A stretch of DNA of 64,000 nt from the NCBI GenBank assembly GCA_003136395.1, contig PLEH01000283.1:5208-69207 (forward strand), in the 5' to 3' direction. Made by a program: the position numbers and the translations under genes. The DNA comes from Phenylobacterium sp. (lineage in GTDB: Bacteria > Pseudomonadota > Alphaproteobacteria > Caulobacterales > Caulobacteraceae). Below, in pieces: positions 29,321 to 52,875 of this stretch. How positions within the stretch are numbered: the stretch's first letter is position 1; each line of letters begins with the position of its first letter. Under the pieces are notes generated by a model that was given only the letters and a program-made list of their open reading frames with translations, was not told the origin of the DNA and searched no databases.

Positions 29321-29339
29321 CTCATGACCCACGCCTTGT

Positions 29340-32671: not shown

Positions 32672-32693
32672 TATATGCGAATATACGCAGATA
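32672..32693. promoter_or_regulatory. Palindromic operator copy 1 (pdo / tauE)
   Basis: TATATGC-gaatatac-GCAGATA. Confidence 0.7.
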
Positions 32694-32717
32694 CAAGTCG
32701 GATTGACGTTCGCCCTC

Positions 32718-33491
32718 ATGTCCACGTTCACGATCGTCTCAGCCCTGATGAGCGGCGCCCTCGTCGGCGCGCTGCTCGGCCTGTTCGGCGGCGGCGGCTC
32801 TGTGCTGGCGACGCCGCTGCTGCTGTATGTCGTGGGCATTCGCGACCCTCACGTGGCGATCGGCACCTCCGCCGCCGCCGTGGCCGTGAACGCCGCGATG
32901 AATCTGGTCGGTCACGGCCGGGGCGGACGGGTGAAGTGGCCGTGCGCGACAGTGTTTGCGGGCGCGGGCCTACTCGGGTCCTTCCTGGGTTCAAGCCTCG
33001 CCAAGGCCGTCGACGGCCAGAGGCTGCTGCTGTTCTTCGCCTTCGCCATGGCGGCTATCGCGGTCTCCATGCTTCGCCGGCCCAAGTCGGAAGGCGATCC
33101 CGAAGTCCGCATCACCTGGCCCCTGATCCTGAAGCTGGCGCCGGTCGGCGTGCTCACGGGCCTCGCCGCCGGCTTCTTCGGCATCGGCGGCGGGTTCCTG
33201 ATCGTTCCCGGGCTGATGGCGGCCACGGGCATGACGCTGGCCAATGCCGCCGCCTCGTCGCTGCTCTCGGTGGCGTTGTTCGGCGCGGCGACCTCGCTGA
33301 ACTACGCGATCTCGGGTCTCGTCGATTGGCCGATCGCCGGGCTGTTCATTCTCGGAGGTCTTGCCGGCGGCGCCTTAGGTGTACGCGGCGCCGGCGCGCT
33401 CGCCGCCCGCGCGCTCCTGGCGCGGCGGCTCTTCGCGTCGCTGGTCCTCGCCGTGGCCGTCTATGTGGCGTGGAGGGCGACCCACGGATGA
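32718..33491 (+). CDS. TauE/SafE sulfite exporter family
   Basis: GLFGGGGSVLATP, AIGTS, GFFGIGGGFLIVP. Confidence 0.9.
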   Translation: MSTFTIVSALMSGALVGALLGLFGGGGSVLATPLLLYVVGIRDPHVAIGTSAAAVAVNAAMNLVGHGRGGRVKWPCATVFAGAGLLGSFLGSSLAKAVDGQRLLLFFAFAMAAIAVSMLRRPKSEGDPEVRITWPLILKLAPVGVLTGLAAGFFGIGGGFLIVPGLMAATGMTLANAAASSLLSVALFGAATSLNYAISGLVDWPIAGLFILGGLAGGALGVRGAGALAARALLARRLFASLVLAVAVYVAWRATHG

Positions 33492-34102
33492 CCGGCTCCG
33501 AAAACAGCTGGGACAGGCGCTACGCGCAGCCGGACTACCTTTTCGGTCTCGAGCCGAATGCGTTCCTCGTCCGACAGTCCGCCCATCTGAAGCCTGGATC
33601 GAAGGCCCTGGCTGTCGCCGATGGCGAAGGCCGCAATGGGGTCTGGCTGGCTCAGCAGGGCCTGTCCGTCCTGTCGATCGACAACTCCCCGGTCGGCCAA
33701 GCCAAGGCTCGGCGATTGGCTGAGTCGCGCGGCGTGACGATGGCGTTCGAAGAGGCGAATCTCGAAACCTGGTCCTGGCCCGAGGCCGCCTTCGATCTCG
33801 TGGCGGCGATCTTCATCCAGTTCGCGCCGCCCGCCCTGCGGGCGCGGATCTTCGATGGCCTGCAGGCCGCGCTCAAGCCGGGCGGCGTTCTTCTGCTGCA
33901 AGGCTACCGGCCCGAGCAGATCGCCTACGGCACGGGTGGGCCCGCGGCGCCGCAGAACCTCTACACGGAGCCCATGCTGAGGGCGGCTTTCGCCGGCATG
34001 GATATCCTCGAACTCCGGTCACATGACTCGCCCATCCACGAGGGCAAGGGCCACGACGGGGTCTCGGCGTTGATCGACCTGGTCGCCCGGAAGCATGCCT
34101 GA
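33488..34102 (+). CDS. Class I SAM-dependent methyltransferase
   Basis: WDRRY..FGLEPN, LAVADGEGRNGVWLA, LKPGG; ATGA overlap. Confidence 0.88.
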   Translation: MTGSENSWDRRYAQPDYLFGLEPNAFLVRQSAHLKPGSKALAVADGEGRNGVWLAQQGLSVLSIDNSPVGQAKARRLAESRGVTMAFEEANLETWSWPEAAFDLVAAIFIQFAPPALRARIFDGLQAALKPGGVLLLQGYRPEQIAYGTGGPAAPQNLYTEPMLRAAFAGMDILELRSHDSPIHEGKGHDGVSALIDLVARKHA

Positions 34103-34793
34103 TCCGAAAACGCCCCGGAAGAACCTGCTGCAGCCGCGCCGAGAGGCCGGCGCCTCGTTGATCGCGCGCCATCCGAAGGCCTCCCTGGCGATCGCGGCGG
34201 CCGTGGGGCTCCTCGCATCCTATCTGATACGCGGCGGCTCGGACCGCCAGATCCTGCCGCTGACACCTGTCGTGGAGGCGGTTCTCAACGATCCGGAAAC
34301 GCCCCGGGTGGGATCGCCCGCCAGCCCGGTCACAATCGTCGTCTTCACGGATTACCAGTGTCCGATCTGCCGAGGGACCGACCCGGCGCTGGAACGGCTG
34401 CTGCGGCGTGACGGCCGGGTGCGTGTGATGTTCAAGGATTGGCCGATCCTGGGACCAGGGTCGCGCCTGGCGGCGCGCACGGCCCTGGCGGCGGATCGCC
34501 AGGGGCGTTACCTCGCCATGCACCGGGCGCTGATGGCGACCCGCCTGCCGCTGACGGAAGCCAACATGCCGACGATCGGCCGCGCCGCCGGCGTCGATTG
34601 GCCCCGGCTGACCGTCGATCTTGCGCGCGATGGCGTCGCGATCGACAGGTTGCTCGCCCGCCAATCCCAGCAGGCCTGGTCACTCGGCCTCGAGGGGACG
34701 CCGGCCTATCTCGTAGGTCCCCTCCTTGTGCGCGGCGGACTGGATGACCGGGCCCTTGCGCGCGCCATCGCCGAGGCTCGCCGTCGGGAGTGA
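34095..34793 (+). CDS. DsbA-family thioredoxin-fold protein
   Basis: FTDYQCPICR, KDWPILG, GTPAY. Confidence 0.85.
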   Translation: MPDPKTPRKNLLQPRREAGASLIARHPKASLAIAAAVGLLASYLIRGGSDRQILPLTPVVEAVLNDPETPRVGSPASPVTIVVFTDYQCPICRGTDPALERLLRRDGRVRVMFKDWPILGPGSRLAARTALAADRQGRYLAMHRALMATRLPLTEANMPTIGRAAGVDWPRLTVDLARDGVAIDRLLARQSQQAWSLGLEGTPAYLVGPLLVRGGLDDRALARAIAEARRRE

Positions 34794-34797
34794 GCGG

Positions 34798-36399
34798 CTA
34801 GGTCACGCTGCCGCTCGCCAGCGACAGGACGTTCGGGCAAAGCCTGAGGGGCGCGGGCCGATGGCTGACCATCACGACGCCCTGGCGGGTGCGGCCCAGC
34901 CGGCGGTCGAGCGCGGCCAGCAGCGCCGCTTCGGTCCCACGATCGAGGCCCTCCGTCGGTTCGTCGAGGAGCAGCCAGGGTGCGGGCCGCAAGTAAGCCC
35001 GCGCCAGCGAAAGCCTGCGCCGCTCGCCGCCCGAGAGCACTTCGCCGCCGTCGCCAATCCAGGTCTGCAGGCCTCGGGGCAGCCGCCGGACCCGGGCATC
35101 GAGCTGCGCGTCGGCCAAGGCGTCCCATAAGGCCGCGTCGTCAAGGTCCGGCGCCGCCAGCCGCAGGTTGTCCGCCACGGTTCCGGTCAGGAGACGCGCG
35201 TCCTGCGGCGCATAGGCGAATAGCGGACGCGCCCAACCTGTAGGGGCCTCCTCCAGGGGTCTGAGGCCGATGCGTACGCGGCCCGGGGGCGCGGCGCGCA
35301 GCCCTACAAGGGCCTCCAAGGTTCGCGTCTTGCCGACGCCCGATGGCCCGATGATGGCAAGCCGCGCGCCGGCCGCCAGTCGGTGGCCATCGATCTCAAG
35401 CGAAGCATCGGTCGGCGGTTCCGAAGGGACAGCGCCCGGATCGACCAGGACCCCGTCGAGGCGAGCGACCGCCTCCGTGTAGGCGCCCTTCTCCTGGCCC
35501 GCGCGCAGCAGGCCGGTGACCCCGTCCACGCCGGCGAGTGCTGCTAGCACCGAGAGGGCGGCGAAGGGCAGTGGCGCCCGCATCGACAGCGCCGCCACCA
35601 CGGCGATCGTCATGGCCGCGAGTCCGGCTTGCAGGAGGCCTAGCACCGCCTCGGCGTCGCGACGCCGCAAGCTGGCCCGCCCCAAGGCCTCATCGTGGAT
35701 CATGAGCGCCTCGACAGCCCGATGCGTCAGGTCGAAGCAACGCAGTTCCGGCGCGGCCAACAGGTAGGCGCCAAGGCCGTCCTTCAGCCGCCCGCCGGCG
35801 CGAAGCTGATCGCGTCCCGGGTCGCGGGTCAGATGACCGGCCAGGGTGTGACCTGCGGCGACCTGCAGGCCAAGGCCGGCGAGATAGGCGATCGCCGCCC
35901 AGATGGAGGCCAGGGCGATCGCCGCGACGGCGACGCCGGCGGCCGCCGTGGCCACCCAGGGCGCGGAGCGGCGGACGAACAGAGTTTCGATCGCGCCCAC
36001 GTCCTGCACCAGCCGCGCGGAGGCCTCGCCGGAGGACAGGCCCAGCGCCTGTTGCGGCGGCGCGGCCGCCAGGCCCGCGAAGAGAGCGGGGCGCAAGGCC
36101 GCCAGGGCGCGGAACGCCGCGCGATGCCCAAACAGGCGCTCGCCGTAGCGCCCGGCGGTTCGCACGATAGCCAGTCCTCGGAGCCCCGCGCTGGGCAGGA
36201 GGTAGTTGAAGGCCTGCACGGCCGCCGGCCCCGCCGCGCCCGCCAAGGCGGCGCCGGCGAGGAACCAGCCCGAAAGACCGAGCAGCAGGGTGGTCGCCGC
36301 CGCGGTGGCCGCGCCCGCCAGGCCGGCGATCAGCAGATCGCCTCGGCGCAGGCGCACCTGTCGCGCAAGGAACTCGCCGACCGGCGAGGGCGCGCTCAT
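34798..36399 (-). CDS. cydC: Thiol-reductant ABC exporter CydC
   Basis: LLGLSGWFL, RTAGRYGERL, GPSGVGKT, LSGGERRRL, LLDEP. Confidence 0.87.
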   Translation of the reverse strand: MSAPSPVGEFLARQVRLRRGDLLIAGLAGAATAAATTLLLGLSGWFLAGAALAGAAGPAAVQAFNYLLPSAGLRGLAIVRTAGRYGERLFGHRAAFRALAALRPALFAGLAAAPPQQALGLSSGEASARLVQDVGAIETLFVRRSAPWVATAAAGVAVAAIALASIWAAIAYLAGLGLQVAAGHTLAGHLTRDPGRDQLRAGGRLKDGLGAYLLAAPELRCFDLTHRAVEALMIHDEALGRASLRRRDAEAVLGLLQAGLAAMTIAVVAALSMRAPLPFAALSVLAALAGVDGVTGLLRAGQEKGAYTEAVARLDGVLVDPGAVPSEPPTDASLEIDGHRLAAGARLAIIGPSGVGKTRTLEALVGLRAAPPGRVRIGLRPLEEAPTGWARPLFAYAPQDARLLTGTVADNLRLAAPDLDDAALWDALADAQLDARVRRLPRGLQTWIGDGGEVLSGGERRRLSLARAYLRPAPWLLLDEPTEGLDRGTEAALLAALDRRLGRTRQGVVMVSHRPAPLRLCPNVLSLASGSVT

Positions 36400-38018
36400 G
36401 GAAGCCTCACGACGTGATCGGCGGCGGCGGCGAGCGTCTCGGAATGGGTCGCCACGATGATGGTCCTGTCCGGTGTGGCGGCGCGGAGGAGCGCGATGAT
36501 CTCAGCTTCCGCCGCCCGGTCGAGGTCGGCGGTCGGCTCGTCAAGCAGGAGGAGCGGTGCGGGCTTGAGCAGGGCCCGCGCCAGGGCAAGACGCCGCCGC
36601 TCCCCGCCGGACAGGCCCGATCCGCGTTCGTCGAGTTGGGTGTCCCCGGCCTGGCCGCGTCGCGCCAGGGCCGGCCCGAGGCCGACACGGTCGGCCATGG
36701 CGAGCGCGCGGTCGCGGGTAACGTCCTGTCCGGCCGCCATCAGGTTGTCAGTGATCGTGCCCGGCAGGAAGGCGGGCGCCTGGCCGGCCCATGCGGCGAG
36801 GCCGGCGAAGCCGCCGGTGTCGGCCAACCGAAGGGTGGCGACCTCAACGGACCCTGTCTCCAACGGGGTGAGGCCAAGGATCGCGGCCAGGAGGGAGGAC
36901 TTGCCGGATCCGGTCGGCCCAACGATGGCGGTCAGGGCGCCGGCCGGCGCCACCTCATCCAGCGGACCGATGACGAGGTCCCCGAACCGCAAGGTGAGAT
37001 TGCGCAGCCGCACCTCGGGGGCGACGTCCATGTTTATCGGCGCCAGGGCCGCCGGCGGCCCCGCGTCAAGCAAGGGGCGCAGCCGGGCCGCGGCGGCTTC
37101 GCCCAGGTGCTTTTCATGATAGGCGGCGGCGAGCTTGCGCAGCGGTGCGTAGAATTCCGGGGCCAGCGCCAGGGCAAAGAGGGCGCGCCGAAAATCCAGC
37201 GTCTCCGGGACCTTGAACGGCAGCAGTCCCAGCAGCGAGAAGCCGCAATAGACCGCGACCATGGCCACGGCCACAGCGGCGAAAAACTCCAACGCCGCCG
37301 TCGAGATGAAGGCGATGCGCAAGACGCCGAGGGTGCGGTTGCTGACGTCCTGGGCGGCCGCGGCGACCTTGGCGGTCTCGGAGGCTTCGGCCTGGAACGC
37401 CAGAATGACCGGCAGGGCCCGGACCCGGTCGACGAAATGACCGGAAAGTCTGGCCAGCGCGTCGAACTGGCGGGTCGCCTCGGCGCCGGCCGCGCCGCCG
37501 GCCAGGGACATGATCGCCGCCAAGGGGATCAGGGTCGCCAGCAGGATGGCGGCCGAGATCGGACTGGCCAGGGCGACGGCGGCGGCGATCAGCAGTGGCC
37601 CGATGCGGGCGTCGAGCGCGGCGGGCTGGAACTGACTGAAATAACCGTCGACCGCCTCGATCTCGTCGATGACGGCGCCGGTCGCCTCTCCGACCGAGGC
37701 CGGATCGCCGCGGCCGCGGCCAAGCACGACGGCCAGGGCCTCACGACGCATCCGCGCTTTGACCCGCAGCGCATGCCGGGCCGCGACCCTGGTGGCGGCC
37801 CATCCGGCCAGGGCGCGCGCGGTCAGGGCAGCGGCGAGGGCCACGAGCGCCGGCAAGGCGGCCCTATCGGTCAGCACCAAGGTCAGGCTCAGCGCGAAGG
37901 CCGCCGCGCTCGCGGCGTTGATCAGCATCAAGGCGAAGAGGGGCGTGGAAGGCGCATGAGCCGCGCGCCCACACACCTTGAGGAAGGCTCGGTTGGCGAC
38001 GGTGTCCACGACGGTCAT
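36396..38018 (-). CDS. cydD: Thiol-reductant ABC exporter CydD
   Basis: DGYFSQFQP, LRIAFISTAALE, APEFYAPLRKLAAAYH, GPTGSGKS, LSGGE. Confidence 0.87.
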   Translation of the reverse strand: MTVVDTVANRAFLKVCGRAAHAPSTPLFALMLINAASAAAFALSLTLVLTDRAALPALVALAAALTARALAGWAATRVAARHALRVKARMRREALAVVLGRGRGDPASVGEATGAVIDEIEAVDGYFSQFQPAALDARIGPLLIAAAVALASPISAAILLATLIPLAAIMSLAGGAAGAEATRQFDALARLSGHFVDRVRALPVILAFQAEASETAKVAAAAQDVSNRTLGVLRIAFISTAALEFFAAVAVAMVAVYCGFSLLGLLPFKVPETLDFRRALFALALAPEFYAPLRKLAAAYHEKHLGEAAAARLRPLLDAGPPAALAPINMDVAPEVRLRNLTLRFGDLVIGPLDEVAPAGALTAIVGPTGSGKSSLLAAILGLTPLETGSVEVATLRLADTGGFAGLAAWAGQAPAFLPGTITDNLMAAGQDVTRDRALAMADRVGLGPALARRGQAGDTQLDERGSGLSGGERRRLALARALLKPAPLLLLDEPTADLDRAAEAEIIALLRAATPDRTIIVATHSETLAAAADHVVRLP

Positions 38019-38033
38019 CGGGCTAGGAACACA

Positions 38034-38055
38034 TATTTGCGTATCTTAGCATATA
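38034..38055. promoter_or_regulatory. Palindromic operator copy 2 (cydDC / cydABX)
   Basis: TATTTGC-gtatctta-GCATATA. Confidence 0.7.
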
Positions 38056-38113
38056 TCGATATTGCGACGCGGTCGTCCCGGGTGTTGAGTGCTGCGAACT
38101 GAAGGACTGAGTC

Positions 38114-39682
38114 ATGTCTATGGATGTCGTCGAGCTCTCTCGGCTGCAGTTCGCCCTGACGGCCATGTACCACTTTCTGTTCGTGCCGCTGACGCTGGGA
38201 CTGTCGTTCCTGCTGGTCATCATGGAGAGCATCTATGTCATGACCGGTCGGCCGATCTGGCGGACCATCACCCGTTTCTGGGCGACGATCTTCGGCATCA
38301 ACTTCGTGCTCGGCGTCGCCACAGGCCTGACCATGGAGTTCGAGTTCGGGACCAACTGGTCCTACTACTCCCACTACGTCGGCGACATCTTCGGCGCCCC
38401 GCTGGCCATCGAGGGCCTGATGGCCTTCTTCCTGGAAGCCACCTTCGTCGGCCTGATGTTCTTCGGCTGGGAAAAACTCTCCCGGCGCGGCCACCTGTTC
38501 GTGACCTTCATGGTCGCCCTGGGTTCAAATCTCTCGGCGCTCTGGATCCTCATCGCCAACGGCTGGATGCAGAATCCGGTCGGCGCGGCCTTCAATCCCG
38601 ACACCATGCGGATGGAGGTCACCAACTTCCAGGAGGTGCTGTTCAATCCCGTCGCCCAGGCCAAGTTCGTCCATACGGTCAGCGCCGGCTATGTCACCGG
38701 CTCGGCGTTCGTCCTCGGCGTCTCGGCGATCATGCTGTTGAGCGGCAAGTGGCCGCGTGTCGCCAAGCGCTCCTTCGCGGTCGCCGCGGCATTCGGCCTG
38801 GCTTCGGCCCTCTCGGTCGTCGTGCTCGGCGATGAGAGCGGCTACACGCTCACAGACAATCAGAAAATGAAGCTCGCGGCCCTGGAGGCCATGTGGGAGA
38901 CCGAGCCCGCGCCAGCCGGCCTCACCGCCTTCGGCATCCCCAGCCTGAAGGATCGAAAGACCCACGCCGAGATCAAGATCCCCTATGTCCTGGGGCTGAT
39001 CTCGACCCGCAGTATCGACAAGCCGGTCGCCGGCATCTTCGAGCTGGTGGCCATCGCCGAGACCCGTGTCGAAGGCGGGGTGAAAGCCTATGACGCCCTT
39101 GAGCGACTGAAGGCCGCGCCGCTGGACCAGCTCGCGCGCGCCGACTTCGAGACCCATCGCCGCGACCTGGGCTACGGCCTGCTGCTCAAGCGTTATGTCG
39201 CCGATCCCCGCACCGCCGACGCTGCGACGATCCAGAAGGCCGCCTGGGACACCGTCCCCGACGTGCCGGTGATGTTCTGGCTGTTCCGGATCATGGCCGG
39301 GATCGGCTTCCTCCAGATCGCCGTCTTCGCCGCCGCCTTCGTGCTGGTGACGATGCGCAAGTGCGACACCAAGTGGATCCTGTGGACCGCCATGGCGATC
39401 ATGCCCTTGCCGTGGATCGCCATCGAATCCGGCTGGATGCTCTCCGAGCTTGGCCGCCAGCCCTGGGCCGTCGAGGGCGTGCTGCCGACCTTCCTGGGCG
39501 CGTCGAGCCTGACGGTGGCCCAGATCTGGACCACGATCGTCGGTTTCACCCTGCTCTACGGCGCCCTGGCCGTTGTCGAGGTCGGCCTGATCGTCCGGAC
39601 CATCAGGCGCGGCCCCTACGCACACCACGACCAGCCGGACGACTCTGCGGTGAACGTGATCCGCCTGGCGCCGGCCGAATAA
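38114..39682 (+). CDS. cydA: Cytochrome bd ubiquinol oxidase subunit I (long Q-loop)
   Basis: SRLQFALTAMYHFLFVP, FEFGTNWS, FFLEATF, QKMKLAALE, ELGRQPW. Confidence 0.95.
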   Translation: MSMDVVELSRLQFALTAMYHFLFVPLTLGLSFLLVIMESIYVMTGRPIWRTITRFWATIFGINFVLGVATGLTMEFEFGTNWSYYSHYVGDIFGAPLAIEGLMAFFLEATFVGLMFFGWEKLSRRGHLFVTFMVALGSNLSALWILIANGWMQNPVGAAFNPDTMRMEVTNFQEVLFNPVAQAKFVHTVSAGYVTGSAFVLGVSAIMLLSGKWPRVAKRSFAVAAAFGLASALSVVVLGDESGYTLTDNQKMKLAALEAMWETEPAPAGLTAFGIPSLKDRKTHAEIKIPYVLGLISTRSIDKPVAGIFELVAIAETRVEGGVKAYDALERLKAAPLDQLARADFETHRRDLGYGLLLKRYVADPRTADAATIQKAAWDTVPDVPVMFWLFRIMAGIGFLQIAVFAAAFVLVTMRKCDTKWILWTAMAIMPLPWIAIESGWMLSELGRQPWAVEGVLPTFLGASSLTVAQIWTTIVGFTLLYGALAVVEVGLIVRTIRRGPYAHHDQPDDSAVNVIRLAPAE

Positions 39683-39690
39683 GGACCCTG

Positions 39691-40842
39691 ATGATGCACA
39701 TCCCCCTCGACTACGAGACGCTGCGGGTCATCTGGTGGGGCCTGATGGGCGTGCTGCTGATCGGCTTTGCGCTCACCGACGGCTTCGACCTCGGCGTCGC
39801 CGCCCTGCTGCCCTTCGTCGCCCGCACGGACGGCGAACGGCGGATGGTGATCAACACCATCGGCGCGACCTGGGAAGGCAACCAGGTGTGGTTCATTCTT
39901 GGCGGCGGCGCGATCTTCGCCGCCTGGCCGTTCGTCTATGCGGTCAGCTTCTCCGGCTTCTACCTGGCGATGTTCGCGGTCCTCGCCTCGCTGATCCTGC
40001 GGCCTGTCGGCTTCAAGTATCGCTCCAAGCGGCCATCGAAGGCCTGGCGCACCACCTGGGACTGGGCGCTGTTCGCAGGCGGCTTCGTCCCGGCCCTGGT
40101 GTTCGGCGTGGCGGTCGGCAATGTCCTGCAAGGCATTCCCTTCCATCTCGATGACGATCTGCGCGCCACCTATACCGGGTCCTTCTTCGGCCTCTTCACC
40201 CCCTTCACCCTGGTCTGCGGCCTGCTCTCGGTCGCCATGCTGGTGACCCACGGCGCGGCCTGGCTGACCATCAAGGCCGAGCATGGCGCGGTGCGCGACC
40301 GGGCGCGCACCTTCGGCCAGATCGCGGCCTTGGCGGCCATCGTCCTGTTTGCGGCCGGTTACGCCTTCGTGGCCTTCGGCGGCCTGGGCTTCCGGATCGA
40401 CGGCGCCATCGATCCGGCCGGTCCCTCCAATCCGCTCCGCGCGGCGAGCCTCGCCGCGCCGGGCGGCTGGCTGACCAACTTCGCCACCTATCCGTGGATG
40501 TGGGTCGCGCCGGTCCTGGGCTTCGCCGGCGCGGCCGTCGCCCTGGTCGGCATCCGCGCCGGCAAGGAAGTGCCGGCCTTCGCCGGCTCGTCGCTCTCGG
40601 CGCTTGGCATCATCTCGACCGTCGGCCTGTCGATGTTCCCGTTCATCCTGCCCAGCAGCATCGATCCCAAGTCGAGCCTGACGGTCTGGAACGCGTCTTC
40701 CAGCCACATGACCCTCTTCATCATGCTCGTAGTCACCGTGGTTTTCCTGCCGATCGTGTTGGCCTACACCGCCTGGGCCTACAAGGTGATGTTCGGCCGC
40801 TCCTCGGTCGGCGCGCTCACCACCAACCCCGACCTCTACTAA
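39691..40842 (+). CDS. cydB: Cytochrome bd ubiquinol oxidase subunit II
   Basis: DGFDLGV, WEGNQVWF, LTVWNASSS. Confidence 0.95.
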   Translation: MMHIPLDYETLRVIWWGLMGVLLIGFALTDGFDLGVAALLPFVARTDGERRMVINTIGATWEGNQVWFILGGGAIFAAWPFVYAVSFSGFYLAMFAVLASLILRPVGFKYRSKRPSKAWRTTWDWALFAGGFVPALVFGVAVGNVLQGIPFHLDDDLRATYTGSFFGLFTPFTLVCGLLSVAMLVTHGAAWLTIKAEHGAVRDRARTFGQIAALAAIVLFAAGYAFVAFGGLGFRIDGAIDPAGPSNPLRAASLAAPGGWLTNFATYPWMWVAPVLGFAGAAVALVGIRAGKEVPAFAGSSLSALGIISTVGLSMFPFILPSSIDPKSSLTVWNASSSHMTLFIMLVVTVVFLPIVLAYTAWAYKVMFGRSSVGALTTNPDLY

Positions 40843-40854
40843 GGAGCGACACGC

Positions 40855-40974
40855 ATGTGGTACTTCACCTGGGTGCTGGGCTTGGGCCTTGCGGTCGCCT
40901 TCGGCATCCTCAACGGCATGTGGCACGAGTTCCATCTGGTCGATTCCGGCGATGACGGATCGGACGACGAATAG
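40855..40974 (+). CDS. cydX: Cytochrome bd subunit X (39 aa, absent from ORF track)
   Basis: Own translation MWYFTWVLGLGLAVAFGILNGMWHE..; AAGGAG RBS. Confidence 0.92.
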   Translation: MWYFTWVLGLGLAVAFGILNGMWHEFHLVDSGDDGSDDE

Positions 40975-41015
40975 CGCCCCTGCGCTTGTCGCAAGGTCTC
41001 GGCGAAGGGACAGAG

Positions 41016-43936: not shown

Positions 43937-43982
43937 TAGCATGGCCGGAATCGATCCGCCGCCACTTTGGAAGGTCTTGAAC

Positions 43983-44456
43983 ATGATGCGCCTGCTTGCC
44001 TTGGTCCTCGCGCTCAGCCTCGCGCCCGTCGTGGCCTTCGCCGCCCCGGCGGCGGACCCCATGACCGCACCGGTTCCACCGGGCTACTTCGCCTTCCAGG
44101 AGGTGGTCTACCAGAACGACGGCGGCGGGCCGGATGACCACGCCTATTTCGAGCGGCTGCTGCGACATGTCGCGGCGCACATCGAGGCGACCAACGGCCA
44201 GGTGGAGATCCGCGTCGTCAGCTTCGCGAGCGGCGTGAAGCTCTTCCAGATGGCCAAGACCGACGCCGCGCTCGCCGCCAGCCTCGACAAGCTGCGCGCC
44301 AAGGGTGTCCGGTTCATGCTCTGCCGCAACACCATGAAGGGCATGGGGCTGCGGCCGGAGGACCTCTACGGCGTCAAGGGCGAGGATGTGGTTCCCAGCG
44401 GGGTGGCCGAACTGGCCCGTCTGCAGGGGCTCGGCTACGTCTATATCCACCCCTGA
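43983..44456 (+). CDS. Exported DsrE/F-like protein
   Basis: Signal peptide MMRLLALVLALSLAPVVAFA; FMLCRNTM, VPSGVAELARLQ, GYVYIHP. Confidence 0.78.
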   Translation: MMRLLALVLALSLAPVVAFAAPAADPMTAPVPPGYFAFQEVVYQNDGGGPDDHAYFERLLRHVAAHIEATNGQVEIRVVSFASGVKLFQMAKTDAALAASLDKLRAKGVRFMLCRNTMKGMGLRPEDLYGVKGEDVVPSGVAELARLQGLGYVYIHP

Positions 44457-44462
44457 TCGGCG

Positions 44463-45410
44463 ATGACCAAGCCGCGGTTCGTCTTCGTCGCCATCGTCCT
44501 CTGCGCGATTGGGTTCGGCGCGGGGTTCGGCGTCCGCGCGCTCATGCAAGGGGCGGCGAAGCCTCGGCCGCTCGCGCCCCGGGCGTTTTCGCCGCCACCC
44601 GATACGGCGATCCCTGCGGGGCCCTTGGGTGAGGAGGTGGCCCTCGGCCGCCGGATCTTCACCGACACCGCCAAGGCCGCGCCGGGGTTCGTCGGCAACG
44701 ACCTCAAGTGCTCGAACTGCCATCTGGATGGCGGGCGGCGCGCCAACGCCGCGCCCCTATGGGCGGCCTACGGGCTCTACCCGCAGTACCGGACCAAGAA
44801 CGGCCACGTGAACACCTTCGCCGAGCGGGTGCAGGAGTGCTTCAAGTACAGCATGAACGGCAAGGCTCCGCCGGCGGGTGATCCGGTGCTGGTGGCGGTC
44901 GAAAGCTATGCCGCGTTCCTGGCCACCGGCGCGCCCCATGGCGCCAGGCTGCCCGGTCAGGGCTACCTGAAGCTGCCCAAGCCCGCCCTTCCGGCGGGCT
45001 ATGCGCGCGGTCAGGCGGTTTTCGCGGCGACCTGTGCGCGGTGCCACGGCGCCGACGGCGGCGGACAGCGCGCCGATGGCCAAGTGCTGTTTCCGCCGCT
45101 ATGGGGCGAGCGGTCGTACAACTGGGGCGCCGGCATGGCGGACATGCAGAACGCGGCCGGGTTCATCGCCGCGAACATGCCGCAGGATCATCCCGGAGCG
45201 CTCACCACCCAGCAGGCCTGGGACGTCGCGGCCTATATCGACGGAAAGCCTCGCCCGCAGGATCCGCGCTTCACCGGGTCGCTCGCCGAGACGCGGACGC
45301 GGTATCACGACACCCAGCAATCCGCCTACGGCAAGACCGTCGATGGCGTGCTGCTGGGTGGCGACAGGAGGGGAGGGCGGGCCTCGCGATCCGCCGCGTC
45401 CAAACTGTAG
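44463..45410 (+). CDS. tsdA: Diheme thiosulfate dehydrogenase TsdA-like cytochrome c
   Basis: CSNCH and CARCH; ERVQECFKYSMNG (catalytic Cys), PPLWGERSYNWGAGM, NMP. Confidence 0.8.
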   Translation: MTKPRFVFVAIVLCAIGFGAGFGVRALMQGAAKPRPLAPRAFSPPPDTAIPAGPLGEEVALGRRIFTDTAKAAPGFVGNDLKCSNCHLDGGRRANAAPLWAAYGLYPQYRTKNGHVNTFAERVQECFKYSMNGKAPPAGDPVLVAVESYAAFLATGAPHGARLPGQGYLKLPKPALPAGYARGQAVFAATCARCHGADGGGQRADGQVLFPPLWGERSYNWGAGMADMQNAAGFIAANMPQDHPGALTTQQAWDVAAYIDGKPRPQDPRFTGSLAETRTRYHDTQQSAYGKTVDGVLLGGDRRGGRASRSAASKL

Positions 45411-45426
45411 CGCGACCCGGTCGCGC

Positions 45427-45753
45427 CTACCTCGCGCGGTAGATGCCGCTGAGCGTCTCCAGCACCTGCACAGCAGCGGGATCGTCCAGGCGATAGTAGA
45501 TGGTCTGGCCTTCGCGGCGGGTGGCGACCACGCCCTCGGCGCGCATCTTGGCCAGATGCTGCGAGGCGGCCGACTGGGCCAGCTTGGCGTGGTCGGCGAG
45601 GTCTCCGACCGAGGTTTCGCCCTCAACCAGGCGGCACAGCAGCAGCAGTCTCTGTTCGCTCGCCAGGAGCTTGAGAAGGCGCGCTGCGGGACTAACGCAG
45701 CCTGCCAGGTCGGAGACGTCCTCGGTGACGACTTGGCTTGAGGTGGCGGTCAT
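45427..45753 (-). CDS. ArsR/SmtB regulator, BigR/SqrR-like, lacking the C-terminal Cys
   Basis: LKLLASEQRLLLLCRLVEGE, SQHLAKMR, TRREGQTIYY; ends GIYRAR. Confidence 0.85.
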   Translation of the reverse strand: MTATSSQVVTEDVSDLAGCVSPAARLLKLLASEQRLLLLCRLVEGETSVGDLADHAKLAQSAASQHLAKMRAEGVVATRREGQTIYYRLDDPAAVQVLETLSGIYRAR

Positions 45754-45819
45754 CTGCTTAATGTAGAAGATACGCATGCAAGATCAAGAACGGGCGCCGT
45801 CGCACGCGCGAGGCAGTGG

Positions 45820-48800
45820 TCATGCCGGCTTCCTTGGCAGCGGCACGCCATCATCGCGCAGGACCACATAGATCGCCGGGATCACCAGCACGGTGAGCAG
45901 GGTCGACGAGGCCAGTCCGAACAGCAGCGAGATCGCCAGGCCCTGGAAGATCGGGTCGGTCAGGATCACGGCCGCCCCGATCATGGCCGCCGCCGCCGTC
46001 AAGACGATCGGTTTGAAGCGGATCGCGCCGGCCTCCAGCAGGACTTCCCGCAATGAGCGCCCGGCGGTCTGGCTGTGACGGATGAAGTCCACGAGCAGGA
46101 TCGAGTTTCGGACGATAATGCCGGCGAGCGCGATGAAGCCGATCATCGAGGTGGCGGTGAACGGCGCCCGGAACAGGATGTGCCCGATGACGATGCCGAC
46201 CAGGGTCAGCGGAATCGGGGTCAGGATCACCAGCGGCAGGCGGAAGCTTTTGAACTGGGCGACGACCAGGACGTAGATGCCCAGGATGGCGACGCCGAAG
46301 GCGGCGCCCATATCGCGGAAGGTCACCCAGGTGATCTCCCATTCGCCGTCCCACAGCACGGTCGGCCGGCTCTCGTCGGTCGGCTGGCCGTGCATGCGGA
46401 TGTCAGGTTTGGGGACATCCTTCCAGTCGCCCTGACGGATGGCCTTGTCGACCGCCATCATGCCGTAGATCGGGGCTTCATAGGCGCCGGCGAGCTCGCC
46501 CATGATCATGTCCACGTCACGGCCGTCGCGGCGGAAGATATGGGTCGAGCCGGGCTCGTTCGAGGCCGTGGCGACCTCGCCCAGCGACACCAGCCGCCCC
46601 CCGGCCGGGCCTTGTGAGACCGCCACCGGCATAGCGGCCAGGCCCTCGCCCCAGCTGCGGGCCGATTGCGGCAGGCGCACGGAAATCTCCAGCGGATCGC
46701 GGCCCTCGCCGCGATGGGCGTAGCCGACCACCTGCCCACCCAAGGCCGCGGCGATCGAGTCATAGACGTCGCGGTCGCTGACCTTCAGCGCCTCCAGCCG
46801 GTCGCGGTCGGGAACCAGGCGTAGGCCGGGGCGGGGCTGGCCGTAGCTGTCGTCGATGTCGACGATGTAGGGCACCGAATGGAACGTGGCCTTGACCCGC
46901 TCGGCCACGGCCCGGCGGGTCTTGGCGTCAGGCCCGTAGACCTCCGCCAGCAGGGTCGCCATCACCGGCGGCCCGGGCGGCGCCTCGACCACCTTGATCG
47001 CCGCGCCGGCGGGCAGGGCGATCTTGGCGAGCTTCTGGCGCAGGTCGAGCGCGATGGCGTGGCTCGAGCGATGACGCTTGCCCTTGTCGGCCAGGGCGAC
47101 GGAGAGGTCGCCCATCTCCGGCCTGTTGCGCAGGTAGTAGTGGCGCACCAGGCCATTGAAGTTGAACGGCGAGGCCGTGCCGGCATAGGCGTCGATGGCG
47201 ACGACTTCCGGCAGGCCGCGGGTGACGATCGCCGCGTCGGCCAGGGCGCGCTGCGTGGCTTCCAGCGACGTGCCTTCCGGCATGTCGAGCACCACCTGCA
47301 GCTCCGACTTGTTGTCGAAGGGCAGCAGCTTCACGGTCACGGTCTTGGTGGCGAACATGGCGCAGGCCACGATGGTGGCGAGGCCAACCCCGATCAGGAA
47401 GGTCCAGGCGGACTTGCGCGTCCCGATCACCCGGGTGGCGACCTTGCGGTAGAGCGCGCCGAGCTTCCCTTCGTCGTGATGCCCGCCGCCCGCCGTCAGG
47501 GTCTTGCGGGCGAAGCGGACCATCAGCCAGGGCGCGATGACCACGGCCACGAAGAAGGAGAAGACCATCGCCGCCGAGGCGTTGACCGGGATCGGGGCCA
47601 TGTAGGGGCCCATGAGGCCGGAGACGAACAGCATCGGCAGCAGGGCCGTAACCACGGTCAGGGTGGCGACCACAGTCGGATTGCCAACCTCGGCCACGGC
47701 GTCGATGGCGGCGTCGACTCGGCTTCGACCGTCGGCCATGCCCCAATGCCGGGCGATGTTCTCGATCATAACGATGGCGTCGTCGACCAGGATGCCGATC
47801 GAGAAGATCAGGGCGAACAAGCTGACCCGATTGATCGTGTAGCCCAGGAGATTGGAGGCGAAGAGGGTCAGGAGAATGGTCGTCGGGATAACCACCGCGG
47901 TGACGCCCGCCTCGCGCCAGCCGATGGCGAAGCCGATCAGGACGACGATGGAGAGTGTCGCCAGCCCGAGGTGGAACAGAAGCTCGTTGGCCTTCTCGTT
48001 GGCGGTCGCGCCATAGTCGCGTGTCACCACCACGCTCAAACTGTCCGGCAACAGGGAGCCCTTTAGCGCCTCAACCCGCGCCAGCACGGCCTGAGATACG
48101 ACCACGGCGTTGGCGCCCTTGCGCTTGGCGATCGCCAGGCTGACGGCCGGCGCCTCGCTCCAGCCCTGGCCGGCGCGCGCGTAGCGCCAGGCCCGGGCCT
48201 GGTCCTCGCGCGGGCCCTCGATCACTTGAGCGACGTCGCGGACATAGACGCTCTCGCCCTTGGTGGAGGGTAGGGCGAGCAGGCCGATCTGGGTGGCGTT
48301 GGCCAGCGTCCGCCCGGCGGTGACATCGACGGCCTGGCCGCCGTTGCGCACCTGGCCCGCCGGGAACGCGCGATTGGCCTGGCGGATGGTGTCCATCAGG
48401 GCGCCGAGCGACACGCCGTGCTGCGCCAGCCGCGCGGGATCGGGCTCGACGCGGATCTCCTGGGGCCGGCCGCCGACGATGAAGGTCAGGCCGACATTGT
48501 CGACCTTGGCGACCTCGGTCCGGAGCTTGCCCGCCAGCTCGAAGAGCGCCTGGTCCGTCCACTGGCCCGTCGCGCCCGGCTTGGGCGACAGGGTCAGGAC
48601 AAGGCTGGGCACATCGTTGATGCCGCGCGTCTGGATCAGCGGCTCGGCGATCCCCGCCGGGATCCGGTCATAGTTGGCGCGGATCTTCTCATGGATGCGC
48701 ACGGCCGCGGCGTCCGGATCGGTCCCGACGTTGAAGCGGGCGGTGACCATGACCTGGTTGTCGTCGGCGAAGGTATAGACGTGCTCGACGCCGGCCACGC

Positions 48801-49032
48801 TCTTGACGATCGTCTCCAGCGGCTTGCCGACCAGTTCGACCGCGTCCGGCGCCCGCAGGCCAGGCGCGCCGACCATGATGTCGACCATGGGCACGCTGAT
48901 CTGCGGTTCCTCCTCGCGCGGGATCGAGACCAGCGCCAGCAGGCCCACGGCGATGGCCGCCAGCAGGAAGAGCGGCGTCAGCGGCGAGCGGATGGTCGCC
49001 CTGGTCAGCCGGCCGGAGAGACCGAGGTTCAT
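45820..49032 (-). CDS. RND efflux permease
   Basis: PREEEPQI, GILVDDAIV, GIIVRNSILL, RFKPIVLT. Confidence 0.92.
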   Translation of the reverse strand: MNLGLSGRLTRATIRSPLTPLFLLAAIAVGLLALVSIPREEEPQISVPMVDIMVGAPGLRAPDAVELVGKPLETIVKSVAGVEHVYTFADDNQVMVTARFNVGTDPDAAAVRIHEKIRANYDRIPAGIAEPLIQTRGINDVPSLVLTLSPKPGATGQWTDQALFELAGKLRTEVAKVDNVGLTFIVGGRPQEIRVEPDPARLAQHGVSLGALMDTIRQANRAFPAGQVRNGGQAVDVTAGRTLANATQIGLLALPSTKGESVYVRDVAQVIEGPREDQARAWRYARAGQGWSEAPAVSLAIAKRKGANAVVVSQAVLARVEALKGSLLPDSLSVVVTRDYGATANEKANELLFHLGLATLSIVVLIGFAIGWREAGVTAVVIPTTILLTLFASNLLGYTINRVSLFALIFSIGILVDDAIVMIENIARHWGMADGRSRVDAAIDAVAEVGNPTVVATLTVVTALLPMLFVSGLMGPYMAPIPVNASAAMVFSFFVAVVIAPWLMVRFARKTLTAGGGHHDEGKLGALYRKVATRVIGTRKSAWTFLIGVGLATIVACAMFATKTVTVKLLPFDNKSELQVVLDMPEGTSLEATQRALADAAIVTRGLPEVVAIDAYAGTASPFNFNGLVRHYYLRNRPEMGDLSVALADKGKRHRSSHAIALDLRQKLAKIALPAGAAIKVVEAPPGPPVMATLLAEVYGPDAKTRRAVAERVKATFHSVPYIVDIDDSYGQPRPGLRLVPDRDRLEALKVSDRDVYDSIAAALGGQVVGYAHRGEGRDPLEISVRLPQSARSWGEGLAAMPVAVSQGPAGGRLVSLGEVATASNEPGSTHIFRRDGRDVDMIMGELAGAYEAPIYGMMAVDKAIRQGDWKDVPKPDIRMHGQPTDESRPTVLWDGEWEITWVTFRDMGAAFGVAILGIYVLVVAQFKSFRLPLVILTPIPLTLVGIVIGHILFRAPFTATSMIGFIALAGIIVRNSILLVDFIRHSQTAGRSLREVLLEAGAIRFKPIVLTAAAAMIGAAVILTDPIFQGLAISLLFGLASSTLLTVLVIPAIYVVLRDDGVPLPRKPA

Positions 49033-50060
49033 TTCGCGGCCCCGGCCGGGGTCAGGACGTCGCCGGCCCGAAGTCCGGACAGGACCTCGACCGTGTTGGC
49101 GGACGGGCCGGCCGTGGTCTGGATGGGCGTCTCGGAAACCGTGTTGTCGGTGCGGACCAGGCGGACGTAGTCGATCCCAAAACGGGTGACGACATAGGTG
49201 CGGGGCACGACCAGCGCCTGGCGCTCGCCGACCTTGATCTGGGCGCGGACGCGCTGGCCGATCAGGTCCTGCGGCAGGCCCGCCGCGCTGACATCGGCGG
49301 TGACCTGGCCGCCGGTGACCGACGGATAGACCTGGGTGATCGTGCCTCGCGTGGCGACGCCGCGCAGGTCCTCGGCCGCCAGCTGGACGACATCGCCGAC
49401 CTTCAGGGCGCGGGCCTGGCCTTCGGGCAGTTCGATGCGCACCACCATCGGCCCGGCGGTGATCTTGGCGACCGTCTGGCCGGGCATGACGACGGAGCCG
49501 ATCGGGACGTCGGCGACCAGCACTCGGCCGGCGGCCGGCGCCAGGATCGCGCCCTGGGCGCCGAGTTCGGCGCTGGCGCCGCGCTGGGCGCGGGCCGCGG
49601 CAAGGTTGGCGTTGGCCGCCTTCGTCTGCGCCTCGACCTGGTCGAGCCGGGCCTGGGCGTAGACGCCGTGGGAGAAGAGATCGCGGGTGCGGGCGAGGTC
49701 AGCCTGGGCGCGGGCGGCTTCGGCCGCGGCGGCTGTGACCTGGGCGTCGAAAGCGCCGGTCTGCAGGGCGAGGCGGTCGTCTTTCACCCGGCCAATCACC
49801 TGGCCCTGGCGGACCGTGTCGCCTTCCTTGACACTCAAACTGACAAGCACGCCGGAGATCCGCGCGCGGGCCTCGGCCATGTCGCGAGTCGTGAGCGTCG
49901 CCGGGACCGGTTTCAGGTCGGCGACGGTCTGGGCCTGGACGGTCAGGCGGCCCGGGGCCGGCGCGGTCTGCGCGGCGGGGACGATGGGCTTGGAGTCCCC
50001 GCAGGCGCCCAGCAGCAAGGCCGCCCCTAAGGCGCTGATCAGATACGGCCGTGACGCCAT
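49029..50060 (-). CDS. RND periplasmic adaptor (lipoprotein)
   Basis: Lipobox LLGAC; VKEGDTVRQGQ lipoyl-like motif; APAAGRV. Confidence 0.88.
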   Translation of the reverse strand: MASRPYLISALGAALLLGACGDSKPIVPAAQTAPAPGRLTVQAQTVADLKPVPATLTTRDMAEARARISGVLVSLSVKEGDTVRQGQVIGRVKDDRLALQTGAFDAQVTAAAAEAARAQADLARTRDLFSHGVYAQARLDQVEAQTKAANANLAAARAQRGASAELGAQGAILAPAAGRVLVADVPIGSVVMPGQTVAKITAGPMVVRIELPEGQARALKVGDVVQLAAEDLRGVATRGTITQVYPSVTGGQVTADVSAAGLPQDLIGQRVRAQIKVGERQALVVPRTYVVTRFGIDYVRLVRTDNTVSETPIQTTAGPSANTVEVLSGLRAGDVLTPAGAAK

Positions 50061-50095
50061 GGTTCGCCCTCCCGAGCTGGTCTTGTGACTGACGG

Positions 50096-50425
50096 TTAGC
50101 CGGTAACCGTGGGCAGGCCGGCGGCCTTCCAGGCCGCGAGCCCGCCCGCGAGATGCGTTTCGACGGCCTGGTTTGCCTTGCGGCAATGGTCCACCGCCAT
50201 CGCCGAGCGCTTGCCGCCGGCGCACTGCAGGACAACGGTCTTGCCGCCGGCGTCGGGCAGGGCGGCCGGGTTGAAGGTCGAGAGCGGGACGTTCAGCGCG
50301 CCGTCGATCTTCTCGGCGGCGAACTCGTCCGGTTCGCGCACGTCGATCAACAGGATCTGATGGGCGTCGAGGGCGGCCTTCACCTGCTGCGGGGTGGGGT
50401 CCTTGGTCTTGGGGGCGCCGAACAT
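50096..50425 (-). CDS. Single-domain rhodanese
   Basis: LIDVREPDEF..KIDGA, QCAGGKRS, LAGGLAAW. Confidence 0.9.
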   Translation of the reverse strand: MFGAPKTKDPTPQQVKAALDAHQILLIDVREPDEFAAEKIDGALNVPLSTFNPAALPDAGGKTVVLQCAGGKRSAMAVDHCRKANQAVETHLAGGLAAWKAAGLPTVTG

Positions 50426-50453
50426 GCGGAGGACTCCTTGAGGGGGCGCGCGG

Positions 50454-50759
50454 TCAGGGGACCGCGCAGAACAGGCGGGACAGGGTCTCGACAACGGCGC
50501 GAGCCTGGCCGCCTTGCAGGCCGTAGTAGATGGTTTGGCCGTCGCGGCGGGCGGCGACCACGCCGTCCCGGCGCAGCAGACCCAGGTGCTGGGACGCCAG
50601 GCTTTCGCGCACGCCCAGCATCTCGGCGAGCGCGCCCACCGACTGCTCGCCGTCGAGCAGCGCGCAGACGATCATCAGCCGATGCGGGTTCGCCAGCGAC
50701 TTCAGCAAAGCGCAGGCGTCGTCGGCCGAGGCCTTCAGGGCGTGGGCTTGTAAATTCAT
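50454..50759 (-). CDS. BigR/SqrR-type persulfide-sensing ArsR repressor
   Basis: KSLANPHRLMIVCAL and C-terminal LFC (two-Cys signature); SQHL, RRDGQTIYY. Confidence 0.85.
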   Translation of the reverse strand: MNLQAHALKASADDACALLKSLANPHRLMIVCALLDGEQSVGALAEMLGVRESLASQHLGLLRRDGVVAARRDGQTIYYGLQGGQARAVVETLSRLFCAVP

Positions 50760-50766
50760 AGTTGCG

Positions 50767-50788
50767 TATATGCAGCTATTCACATATA
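50767..50788. promoter_or_regulatory. Palindromic operator copy 3 (repressor-rhodanese-RND / sqr operon)
   Basis: TATATGC-agctattc-ACATATA, 8 nt upstream of the repressor ATG. Confidence 0.7.
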
Positions 50789-50837
50789 TAGTCAAGCGAT
50801 CGAGACGATCACCCTAGGGACCAGGTCGGGACCCGCC

Positions 50838-52199: not shown

Positions 52200-52202
52200 C
52201 CC

Positions 52203-52664: not shown

Positions 52665-52666
52665 AC

Positions 52667-52870: not shown

Positions 52871-52875
52871 TCCCG

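Follow-up and report, generated by a model that had tools for sequence, protein, structure and literature searches.

Three copies of one 22-bp palindrome occur in a 64-kb stretch of a Phenylobacterium sp. contig (~67 % GC; referred to as the window), each in the gap between divergently oriented genes of sulfur metabolism or of cytochrome bd formation, and this is a real observation that lies far outside chance expectation. The palindromes are probably operators of an ArsR-family repressor of the BigR/SqrR type, most likely of ArsR1, which is encoded beside one of them, possibly acting together with its paralogue ArsR2. On balance, we lean towards regarding the region as a self-contained, horizontally mobile cassette for sulfide-proof respiration, in which one persulfide-sensing ArsR repressor would directly gate cydABX and cydDC via an operator shared with sulfide:quinone oxidoreductase (SQR), persulfide dioxygenase, TauE and an RND pump. 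A sequence-only reading of the same DNA had proposed that a persulfide sensor directly controls cytochrome bd; this is supported by the comparative evidence presented here, with binding and persulfide response as predictions. If this is true, the long-observed induction of cytochrome bd by sulfide would for the first time have a mechanism at the operator level.

Three copies of one palindrome in divergent promoter gaps

The pattern TATATGCNNNNNNNNGCATATA (TATATGC-N8-GCATATA) with at most two mismatches matches the window exactly three times, at 32672–32693 (site 1, TATATGCGAATATACGCAGATA), 38034–38055 (site 2, TATTTGCGTATCTTAGCATATA) and 50767–50788 (site 3, TATATGCAGCTATTCACATATA). The three matches carry one mismatch apiece, just as the sequence-only reading had it, and compare with 0.01 matches expected from whole-window dinucleotide shuffles. 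All three are AT-rich islands within 67 % GC DNA and lie, again as read before, inside divergent promoter gaps, namely pdo(−)|tauE(+), cydDC(−)|cydABX(+) and arsR1-rhodanese-membrane-fusion protein (MFP)-RND(−)|sqr-thioredoxin-outer-membrane protein(+). The "six operons" deduced from this arrangement stand as six directions of transcription, not as mapped transcripts.

When spacers of 0–20 nt were tried with identical arms, three hits were obtained for N8 only; other spacings gave four stray single hits (N0, N6 and N10), all located at sites 1 and 3 and due to the ATAT periodicity there. Direct-repeat arrangements of the arms reached a maximum of 1–2 hits per spacing, and the everted arrangement had zero hits in the window. 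A stricter null, in which every intergenic gap was dinucleotide-shuffled separately with its AT-richness kept and scored with a matrix from other genomes, equalled the observed score in 0 of 20,000 shuffles for each of the three gaps. The motif was also looked for in the window gaps at 27365–27637, 29000–29700, 40800–41350 and 52150–52800, and none was found in these.

The 4+4 core ATGC-N8-GCAT, to which the sites had earlier been reduced, did not hold: none of the three sites contains it exactly, and its sole exact match in the window is unrelated (24547). What is conserved is thus a longer and more degenerate unit, and the family consensus is better given as TATATKCG-N6-CGMATATA. For a symmetrised weight matrix, 39 distinct sites from arsR1|sqr and 10 from tauE|pdo were taken, all of them in other genomes; the window and all cyd sites were excluded. 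In the window, this matrix ranks site 1 (35.7 bits), site 3 (30.2 bits) and site 2 (25.2 bits) as the top three, followed by overlapping registers (19.9 and 17.1 bits) and a weak copy at arsR2 (16.6 bits), all other positions scoring at most 15 bits. The third rank of the cyd site with a matrix made from arsR1|sqr and tauE|pdo sites bears out the view that the three sites form one motif class; when site 1 is reverse-complemented, site 2 also agrees with it at 19 of the 22 positions, spacer included. A census of 2.55 Mb of related loci (designated by L-numbers, e.g., L001 or L164) yielded 85 merged matrix hits of at least 22 bits, 82 of them within 260 nt upstream of the starts of arsR1, sqr, pdo, tauE, cydA/cydD, trx, rhd or MFP, none intragenic and three unannotated.

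Conservation and promoter context of the arsR1|sqr and pdo|tauE sites

Alignment of the 70 nt upstream of ArsR1 on the start codon places the palindrome at exactly −29 to −8 from the ATG in ~45 orthologous loci of Caulobacteraceae, Acidocella, Dongia, Acidiphilium and other Alphaproteobacteria. The context in Caulobacteraceae reads cTTGACT-(22-bp site ending CGCATATA)-CGCAACT-ATG, with TTGACT, the spacing and ATACGCAACT-ATG kept in every orthologue of this family. For SqrR, a 22-bp duplex of two-fold symmetry has been published as the operator, its core being ATTC-N8-GAAT (bioRxiv 10.64898/2026.05.15.721447; PMC9774250). The window sites match this layout, so that the SqrR-like geometry noted earlier is confirmed, and ATTC can be read literally in one arm of many of the orthologous sites.

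Judged by conservation, TTGACT (50790–50795, −) is the predicted −35 box of arsR1, and CATATA (50767–50772, −), i.e., an operator arm, its predicted −10 box; TTGACT-N17-CATATA would thus form a sigma-70-type promoter. As the arsR1 ATG follows 7 nt past this −10 box, a leaderless mRNA is implied. Both arsR1 and arsR2 appear to be leaderless, since the promoter placement would start transcription at the ATG, and the starts of their longest open reading frames (ORFs; TTG 50795 for arsR1, ATG 45777 for arsR2) fall within or upstream of promoter elements. On the opposite strand, a mirrored pair, TTGCGT (50762–50767) and TATATA (50785–50790), 17 nt apart, would serve sqr, and one bound dimer would therefore span both −10 boxes and both spacers. 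The Caulobacter sigma-73 −10 sequence (GCTANAWC) was considered for the right arm and dropped, with only 5 of 8 positions agreeing on recount. A terminator scan of the three gaps returned nothing.

In 14 Caulobacteraceae loci, the element TAT(A/C)T(G/T)C(A/G)TATATTCGCATATA is found in the tauE|pdo gap, with a conserved cTTG in front of it and TAnnTT behind it at the distance of a −10 box; site 1 is also kept in L164, L166, L169, L170 and L172. The weaker fourth copy (45751–45772) that the sequence-only reading placed over the start of the second ArsR gene is present and overlaps the likely ATG at 45753. It has four mismatches, is the sixth-best position of the window and is at most a possible operator. 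Upstream of arsR2, the block with this copy is kept in relatives and coincides with TTGATC-N16-TACATT-N6-ATG (45753–45787); the copy may therefore be conserved for promoter and start-codon reasons alone.

The cyd site across relatives

For comparison of the cyd site, metagenomes were scanned with CydA, and the contigs of the closest CydA proteins were added. The element is TATTTGCGCATCTTAGCATATA (23.1 bits) in L164 and L165 (CydA 91 % identical), the same as in the window (25.2 bits) in L166–L168 (89 %), TAATTGCG..AGCATATA (17.2 bits) in L169 (89 %) and AATATGCGTAATTGCGCAAATA (25.2 bits) in L170 (87 %), which has no cydDC and carries cydA after tauE. Throughout L164–L170, it occupies the same place, 81–86 nt upstream of the cydA ATG, with flanks that vary by locus. 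Related elements were found with more distant CydA proteins in L122 (72 %; 36.9 bits) as well as L118 and L119 (74–76 %; about 28 bits), and these, like that of L084, align at the corresponding place. Most cydDC|cydAB loci with 76–81 % identical CydA have a gap of ~400 bp with negative scores, and a Bordetella locus with 85 % identical CydA has no site.

Altogether, 15 of 93 cydA loci possess a site of at least 20 bits, always 70–121 nt from the ATG. Sulfur-metabolism neighbours are present in the fetched DNA of 10 of these 15 loci vs 18 of the 78 loci without a site (Fisher's exact p = 0.0016, the loci not being phylogenetically independent).

Some further features of cyd loci may be recorded here. 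In L170 (9114–12862), cydABX follows directly downstream of tauE, the 25-bit palindrome is 86 nt upstream of cydA, and the pdo|tauE site reaches 38.9 bits. A second register, shifted by 8 bp, overlaps site 2 (38042–38063; 17.1 bits) and recurs in L166 (9928–9949; 22.4 bits); it may represent a second dimer site or the −10 region of cydA. A downstream GATATTGC block near site 2 is likewise conserved among relatives. The well-formed palindrome (A/T)ATATTC-N8-T(A/T/C)ATATT is located 72–84 nt upstream of cydA in L173 (9929–9950) and L174 (9926–9947), both Phenylobacterium chromosomal loci, from the genomes GCA_046291545.1 and GCA_041916435.1, as well as in L118 (9918–9939), where sqr, pdo and tauE are close by, and L119 (2673–2694).

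ArsR1 and ArsR2 as candidate sensors

The only DNA-binding regulators found with Pfam among the island genes at 29–54 kb are ArsR1 (50454–50759, −) and ArsR2 (45427–45753, −), the latter with its own conserved promoter. The true start of ArsR1 is the ATG at 50759, yielding a protein of 101 amino acids (aa), while the TTG at 50795 falls within the −35 box. Both proteins belong to the ArsR/SmtB winged-helix family (PF01022, HTH_5; 6.1e-10 for ArsR1, 2.4e-12 for ArsR2) and pass the 55-bit subfamily cut-off of the NCBIfam HTH_metalloreg model (77.9 and 87.1 bits, respectively). BigR is the best NCBIfam model for ArsR1, and its relatives in the PDB are HlyU (4k2e; closest, 2.4e-22), BigR (3pqj), SqrR (6o8k; 1.8e-18) and YgaV (3cuo).

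The cysteines of ArsR1 in ..LMIVC.. (alpha2) and ..RLFC.. (C-terminal helix) align with the two HlyU cysteines in 4k2e and are invariant across all orthologues recovered. Taken together with the PDB and NCBIfam relatives, this upholds the earlier description of the repressor at 50454 as BigR/SqrR/HlyU-like. ArsR1 thereby shows the cysteine pattern of dithiol persulfide sensors, i.e., an alpha2 Cys in LxxLC plus a C-terminal-helix Cys (ArsR sequence similarity network cluster 4; PMC10054925). As read from the translation, it has neither of the metal-ligand sets (alpha3N CxC; alpha5 Asp/His), alpha3 (GEQSVGAL) being free of Cys and alpha5 (QARAVVETLSRLFC) having no His/Asp pattern. Its candidate operator is also of the SqrR/BigR/HlyU type, namely a two-fold site of ~22 bp with cores 8 bp apart that overlaps its own promoter. 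Scanning of species-representative genomes with ArsR1 gave 80 loci, the 24 closest of which (78–90 % identical) are Phenylobacterium or Caulobacter genomes or metagenome-assembled genomes (MAGs); the window DNA itself is present in peat metagenomes.

ArsR2 has SqrR (6o8k; 1.4e-20) as its closest PDB match and shares the recognition helix SQH with ArsR1. The protein of the window keeps the alpha2 Cys only, with Ser in place of the C-terminal Cys (ETLSGIY vs ETLCDIY in most orthologues). Some further ArsR2 orthologues (L024–L027) are also devoid of the second Cys, and several of these as well as the window protein have an N-terminal Cys (LAGCVSP) instead, which may reflect an alternative sensing pair or a non-inducible paralogue. 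Covariation of the recognition helix (SQH/SQQ) with the half-site across orthologues gave no clear pattern. A third ArsR type is encoded in L002 (plasmid pISP1; 6288–6662), L003 (2324–2698), L118 (about 6300–6705) and L114 (about 3250–3624), often after a peroxiredoxin gene; its C-terminal tail ends in ..FARIL.

Alternative interpretations

Several findings weigh against control of all three gaps by ArsR1. The strict sigma-70 scan called no promoter in any of the three gaps, leaving conservation as the basis of the promoter assignments, and the peat metatranscriptome contigs of relatives are fragmentary and give no information on transcription start sites or operons. ArsR1 (88.8 bits) and ArsR2 (78.7 bits) stay below the 155-bit cut-off of the BigR equivalog model (NF040642) and are thus BigR-like. 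Owing to the common SQH helix, ArsR2 may bind the same sites, and either of the two paralogues may be the binder. Site 2 is the weakest of the three and off consensus at left-arm position 4; TTGCG, which is conserved in the cyd site, could represent a −35 box and not operator sequence, and the related element of L084 (CydA 83 %) is weak. In L172, a Phenylobacterium MAG with the whole island in 16 kb, the cyd element is degraded (TAATTGCGCATCTAAGCAGGTA; four mismatches, <12 bits), the other sites being strong (38.6 bits at pdo|tauE, 29.0 bits at arsR1|sqr). AATATTC-N8-TAATATT precedes the chromosomal cydA of L173 and L174, where sulfur genes and ArsR are absent within 10 kb. Finally, the third ArsR type, which has no alpha2 Cys and an SQQ helix, adjoins cydC in the sphingomonad-type loci L002, L003, L114 and L118.

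Because of the degraded element of L172, the palindromes of L173 and L174 and this third ArsR type, one rival stays alive, albeit as an unlikely one: the arsR1|sqr and pdo|tauE sites would be ArsR1 operators, and the cyd site would be owned by a different regulator with a similar geometry, candidates being ArsR2 or an ArsR-type factor that is dedicated to cyd and encoded elsewhere, such that cytochrome bd answers to oxygen or redox state instead of persulfide. Such a division of labour would also fit the sub-consensus shared by the cyd sites, TA(T/A)TTGCG...AGCATATA, and the SQH helix of an ArsR2 whose window copy lacks the usual second Cys. It is, however, at odds with the absence of a third regulator near cyd in the window or its closest relatives, with detection of the cyd sites by a matrix from arsR1|sqr and tauE|pdo sites alone, with the near-identity of site 2 to inverted site 1, extending into the spacer, and with the enrichment of cydA-upstream sites where the neighbours are sulfur genes.

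Two further rivals are far less probable. ArsR1 might act as Vibrio HlyU does, i.e., as an activator or anti-silencer at AT-rich island promoters, with persulfide turning the genes off. HlyU is indeed its best PDB match, and AT-rich islands in 67 % GC DNA are the type of sequence bound by nucleoid silencers, but an operator that fills the −35/−10 spacer of arsR1, within a conserved promoter, sits where a repressor would, sqr, pdo, tauE and rhodanese are genes that BigR, SqrR and YgaV repress and sulfide induces, and shutting off sulfide detoxification as persulfide rises would be physiologically senseless; we consider this reading highly improbable. Equally improbable is the proposal that the palindromes are core-promoter or UP-element sequence shared within an AT-rich mobile island, with no dedicated protein reading the dyad. 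It could account for the right arm CATATA doubling as the arsR1 −10 box, for the −35-like TTGCG of site 2 and for the coincidence of the weak fourth copy with the −10 box and start codon of arsR2. Dyad symmetry and strict N8 spacing are, however, not promoter properties, both arms are conserved though just one could be a −10 box per direction, and the motif is missing from the other window promoter gaps and from most cydDC|cydAB gaps at similar CydA identity.

Proposed regulation and relation to known systems

We infer DNA binding, repression, the inducer, transcription start sites and operon extents from sequence comparison. In the favoured model of repression by ArsR1, the reduced dimer would, without reactive sulfur, sit on TATATKCG-N6-CGMATATA across the core elements of back-to-back promoters and block RNA polymerase both ways; at arsR1|sqr, the operator would fill the 17-bp spacer and hold the −10 boxes of both promoters, the leaderless one of arsR1 and its mirror image for sqr. 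Upon oxidation of sulfide by SQR, persulfides or polysulfides would bridge the two conserved cysteines of ArsR1, and the repressor would leave the DNA with derepression of all units, i.e., sqr-trx-tolC, arsR1-rhd-MFP-RND, pdo-orf249, tauE-methyltransferase-dsbA, cydDC and cydABX (plus any downstream cargo). Sulfide oxidation, export of sulfite/thiosulfate and a sulfide-insensitive quinol oxidase would thus be switched on as a single package.

Cytochrome bd is a sulfide-insensitive oxidase. Its genes cydAB are sulfide-induced in E. coli, M. tuberculosis and A. baumannii (PMC7315123). In an E. coli mutant of ygaV, which encodes a SqrR/BigR homologue, cydAB is raised, and the authors state that YgaV represses the cytochrome bd genes (PMC9774250, PMC11858517); they regard the mechanism behind sulfide induction of cydAB as unknown (PMC9774250). 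The biological idea is accordingly less new than the sequence-only reading implied, sulfide induction of cydAB and repression by YgaV having already been reported (PMC9774250, PMC11858517). A literature search retrieved no paper with an operator of the SqrR/BigR family at a cyd promoter; a direct, conserved, predicted operator at the cytochrome bd locus is the modestly novel feature. As the regulator family, operator geometry and physiology are already established, the gain is incremental and not conceptual.

YgaV (PDB 3CUO) is a sulfide-responsive ArsR-family repressor whose footprint crosses its own −35/−10 region at an ATTC-N8-GAAT-like sequence (PMC9774250). Its effect on cydAB is known from RNA-seq only, with no cydAB operator shown, whereas here the cydDC|cydABX gap contains a clear, conserved predicted operator, and the cyd genes are physically a part of the regulon. 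SqrR of Rhodobacter capsulatus (PDB 6O8K–6O8O; DNA complex 13CT) has, like ArsR1, a winged-helix ArsR fold with a two-Cys pair in alpha2 and the C-terminal helix. It also resembles the present system in its 22-bp two-fold operator with 4-bp cores 8 bp apart, in the occurrence of several operators per genome and in targets including sqr and rhodaneses. It differs in the core (ATTC vs the half-site TATATKCG), in the recognition helix (SQQ vs SQH) and in its distant sequence; moreover, ArsR1 shares its mobile island with a second paralogue, and a cyd operator is not described for SqrR in the literature surveyed.

BigR (Xylella/Agrobacterium, Acinetobacter; PDB 3PQJ), the family of the best NCBIfam model for ArsR1, autorepresses an operon for a Blh-type dioxygenase and TauE-like membrane proteins. 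Barbosa and Benedetti reportedly described, in 2007, an AT-rich palindromic "BigR box" overlapping the −10 region. Apart from the equivalog score of ArsR1, the present system differs in that pdo is without the N-terminal sulfurtransferase part of Blh and in that the regulon adds sqr, the RND pump and cyd; the sulfide induction of cydAB in A. baumannii has not been ascribed to BigR. HlyU (Vibrio cholerae/V. vulnificus; PDB 4K2E, 3JTH), the closest solved relative of ArsR1, shares the Cys pair, which forms a tetrasulfide with persulfides, abolishing DNA binding. In contrast to the present case, HlyU is an activator/anti-repressor of toxin genes with a different operator (AAATTAATTCAGACTAAATTAGTT), whereas the targets here are genes of sulfide detoxification and respiration and the site is in a repressor position.

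The locus offers a clean, testable case of a SqrR-type site in the cydDC|cydABX gap beside a candidate sensor and the rest of its regulon, and it illustrates recruitment of a respiratory module to an existing stress regulon on a mobile element, with relevance for soil and peat bacteria coping with sulfidic micro-oxic niches. The palindromes at chromosomal cydA in other Phenylobacterium genomes suggest that the link reaches beyond the island.

Gene content of the island

Genes were called from G+C content at third codon positions (GC3), Pfam and NCBIfam, and the gene labels of the earlier reading proved correct in Pfam and NCBIfam. To the left of site 1, pdo (31691–32635, −; Pfam Lactamase_B), with a start kept among relatives, encodes a metallo-β-lactamase-fold persulfide dioxygenase that corresponds to the dioxygenase portion of Blh (409 bits over that portion with NCBIfam NF040641). 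It travels with orf249 (30933–31682, −), encoding a secreted protein without Pfam or NCBIfam match, which is syntenic in L008, L009, L012, L014 and L164. To the right follow tauE for a member of the sulfite/thiosulfate exporter family (32718–33491, +; Pfam TauE, 5.7e-46) and genes for a TehB-like S-adenosylmethionine-dependent methyltransferase (33488–34102, +; weak NCBIfam TehB match) and a DsbA-like thiol:disulfide oxidoreductase (34095–34793, +; Pfam DSBA).

The second gap separates cydC (34798–36399, −; NCBIfam CydC models 265–275 bits, under their cut-offs) and cydD (36396–38018, −; Pfam; NCBIfam TIGR02857, 431 bits, cut-off 435) from cydA (38114–39682, +; Pfam Cyt_bd_oxida_I, 1.4e-166), cydB (39691–40842, +; Pfam Cyt_bd_oxida_II, 1e-102) and cydX (40855–40974, +; 39 aa, ORF MWYFTWVLGLGLAVAFGILNG...), the orthologous 39-aa genes of L164 and L166 matching PF08173. 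With CydA, CydB, CydX and CydDC all present, this is a locus for a cytochrome bd-I type oxidase. CydD and CydC are divergent, as their scores under the NCBIfam cut-offs indicate; the island proteins are only ~50–55 % identical to those of loci with ~80 % identical CydA, i.e., the exporter genes diverge far more than the oxidase. Downstream of cydX and on the same strand, cargo genes (40986–45410; all assigned by Pfam) encode Usp (40986–41450, +), a P-type cation ATPase (about 41447–43936, +), a DsrE-like protein (about 43983–44456, +) and a TsdA/SoxA-like dihaem cytochrome c (44463–45410, +); they are candidates for co-transcription with cydABX.

On the minus strand upstream of arsR2, genes are found for an RND efflux permease (45820–49032, −; Pfam ACR_tran, 5e-140), its MFP or periplasmic adaptor (49029–50060, −; Pfam HlyD_D23/HlyD_3; 343 aa as in L001 and L172) and a single-domain rhodanese (50096–50425, −; PF00581; start MFGAPKT), adjoining arsR1. 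Across site 3, sqr encodes an SQR-like flavoprotein (50919–52199, +; start MAKPRIV; Pfam Pyr_redox_2, weak NCBIfam SQR type III match), followed by genes for a TrxC-like thioredoxin with N-terminal Zn-ribbon (52203–52664, +; Pfam Thioredoxin, Zn_ribbon_Thio2) and a TolC-like outer-membrane factor (52750–54132, +; Pfam OEP, 5e-58; start probably at 52876).

Mobility and surroundings of the island

The genes tauE and arsR2 are convergent neighbours in most relatives, whereas the window, L164, L166 and L172 have the cydDC|cydABX module between these two genes, that of the window with extra cargo. The island is flanked by VirB4/TrbE, VirB3 and TrbC in L164 (704–3844) and by MobA/MobL, a TraG/VirD4-like protein and a T2SSE ATPase in L166 (1–3833), and therefore travels on conjugative elements. 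Immediately left of the sulfur genes, the window encodes a tyrosine integrase with Arm DNA-binding and HTH_17 domains (23313–24869) and, at 20031–21807, a type IV toxin-antitoxin pair (AbiEi/AbiEii), and the GC content falls to 0.60–0.63 at 22–24 kb; the region 20031–24869 is likely the island boundary. A search for tRNA genes found none in the window, including the island edge. Given the tauE–arsR2 adjacency in most relatives and the mobility genes, the cyd module looks inserted into an older mobile ArsR1 regulon; it would have entered between tauE and arsR2 of an island moving on conjugative or integrative elements.

Plasmid megablast revealed an analogous cyd-sqr-RND-pdo-tauE island with other AT-rich elements on the conjugative sphingomonad plasmids pISP1 and pIBU218; these islands were dropped as support, since their AT-rich elements misfit the matrix (5 bits at cyd).

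A second divergent pair, situated between integrase and island, encodes a two-domain rhodanese (26423–27364, −) and a second SQR-like flavoprotein (27638–28966, +), the 273-bp gap between them being without operator (best score 10.5 bits). Further genes of respiration and redox metabolism left of the island encode, among others, a quinol-type nitric-oxide reductase (9273–11582), succinate dehydrogenase/fumarate reductase subunits (11898–13551), a ferritin-like protein, a molybdopterin oxidoreductase fused to a cytochrome b561-like domain (15140–16858) and a pyrroloquinoline quinone (PQQ) dehydrogenase (17349–19163).

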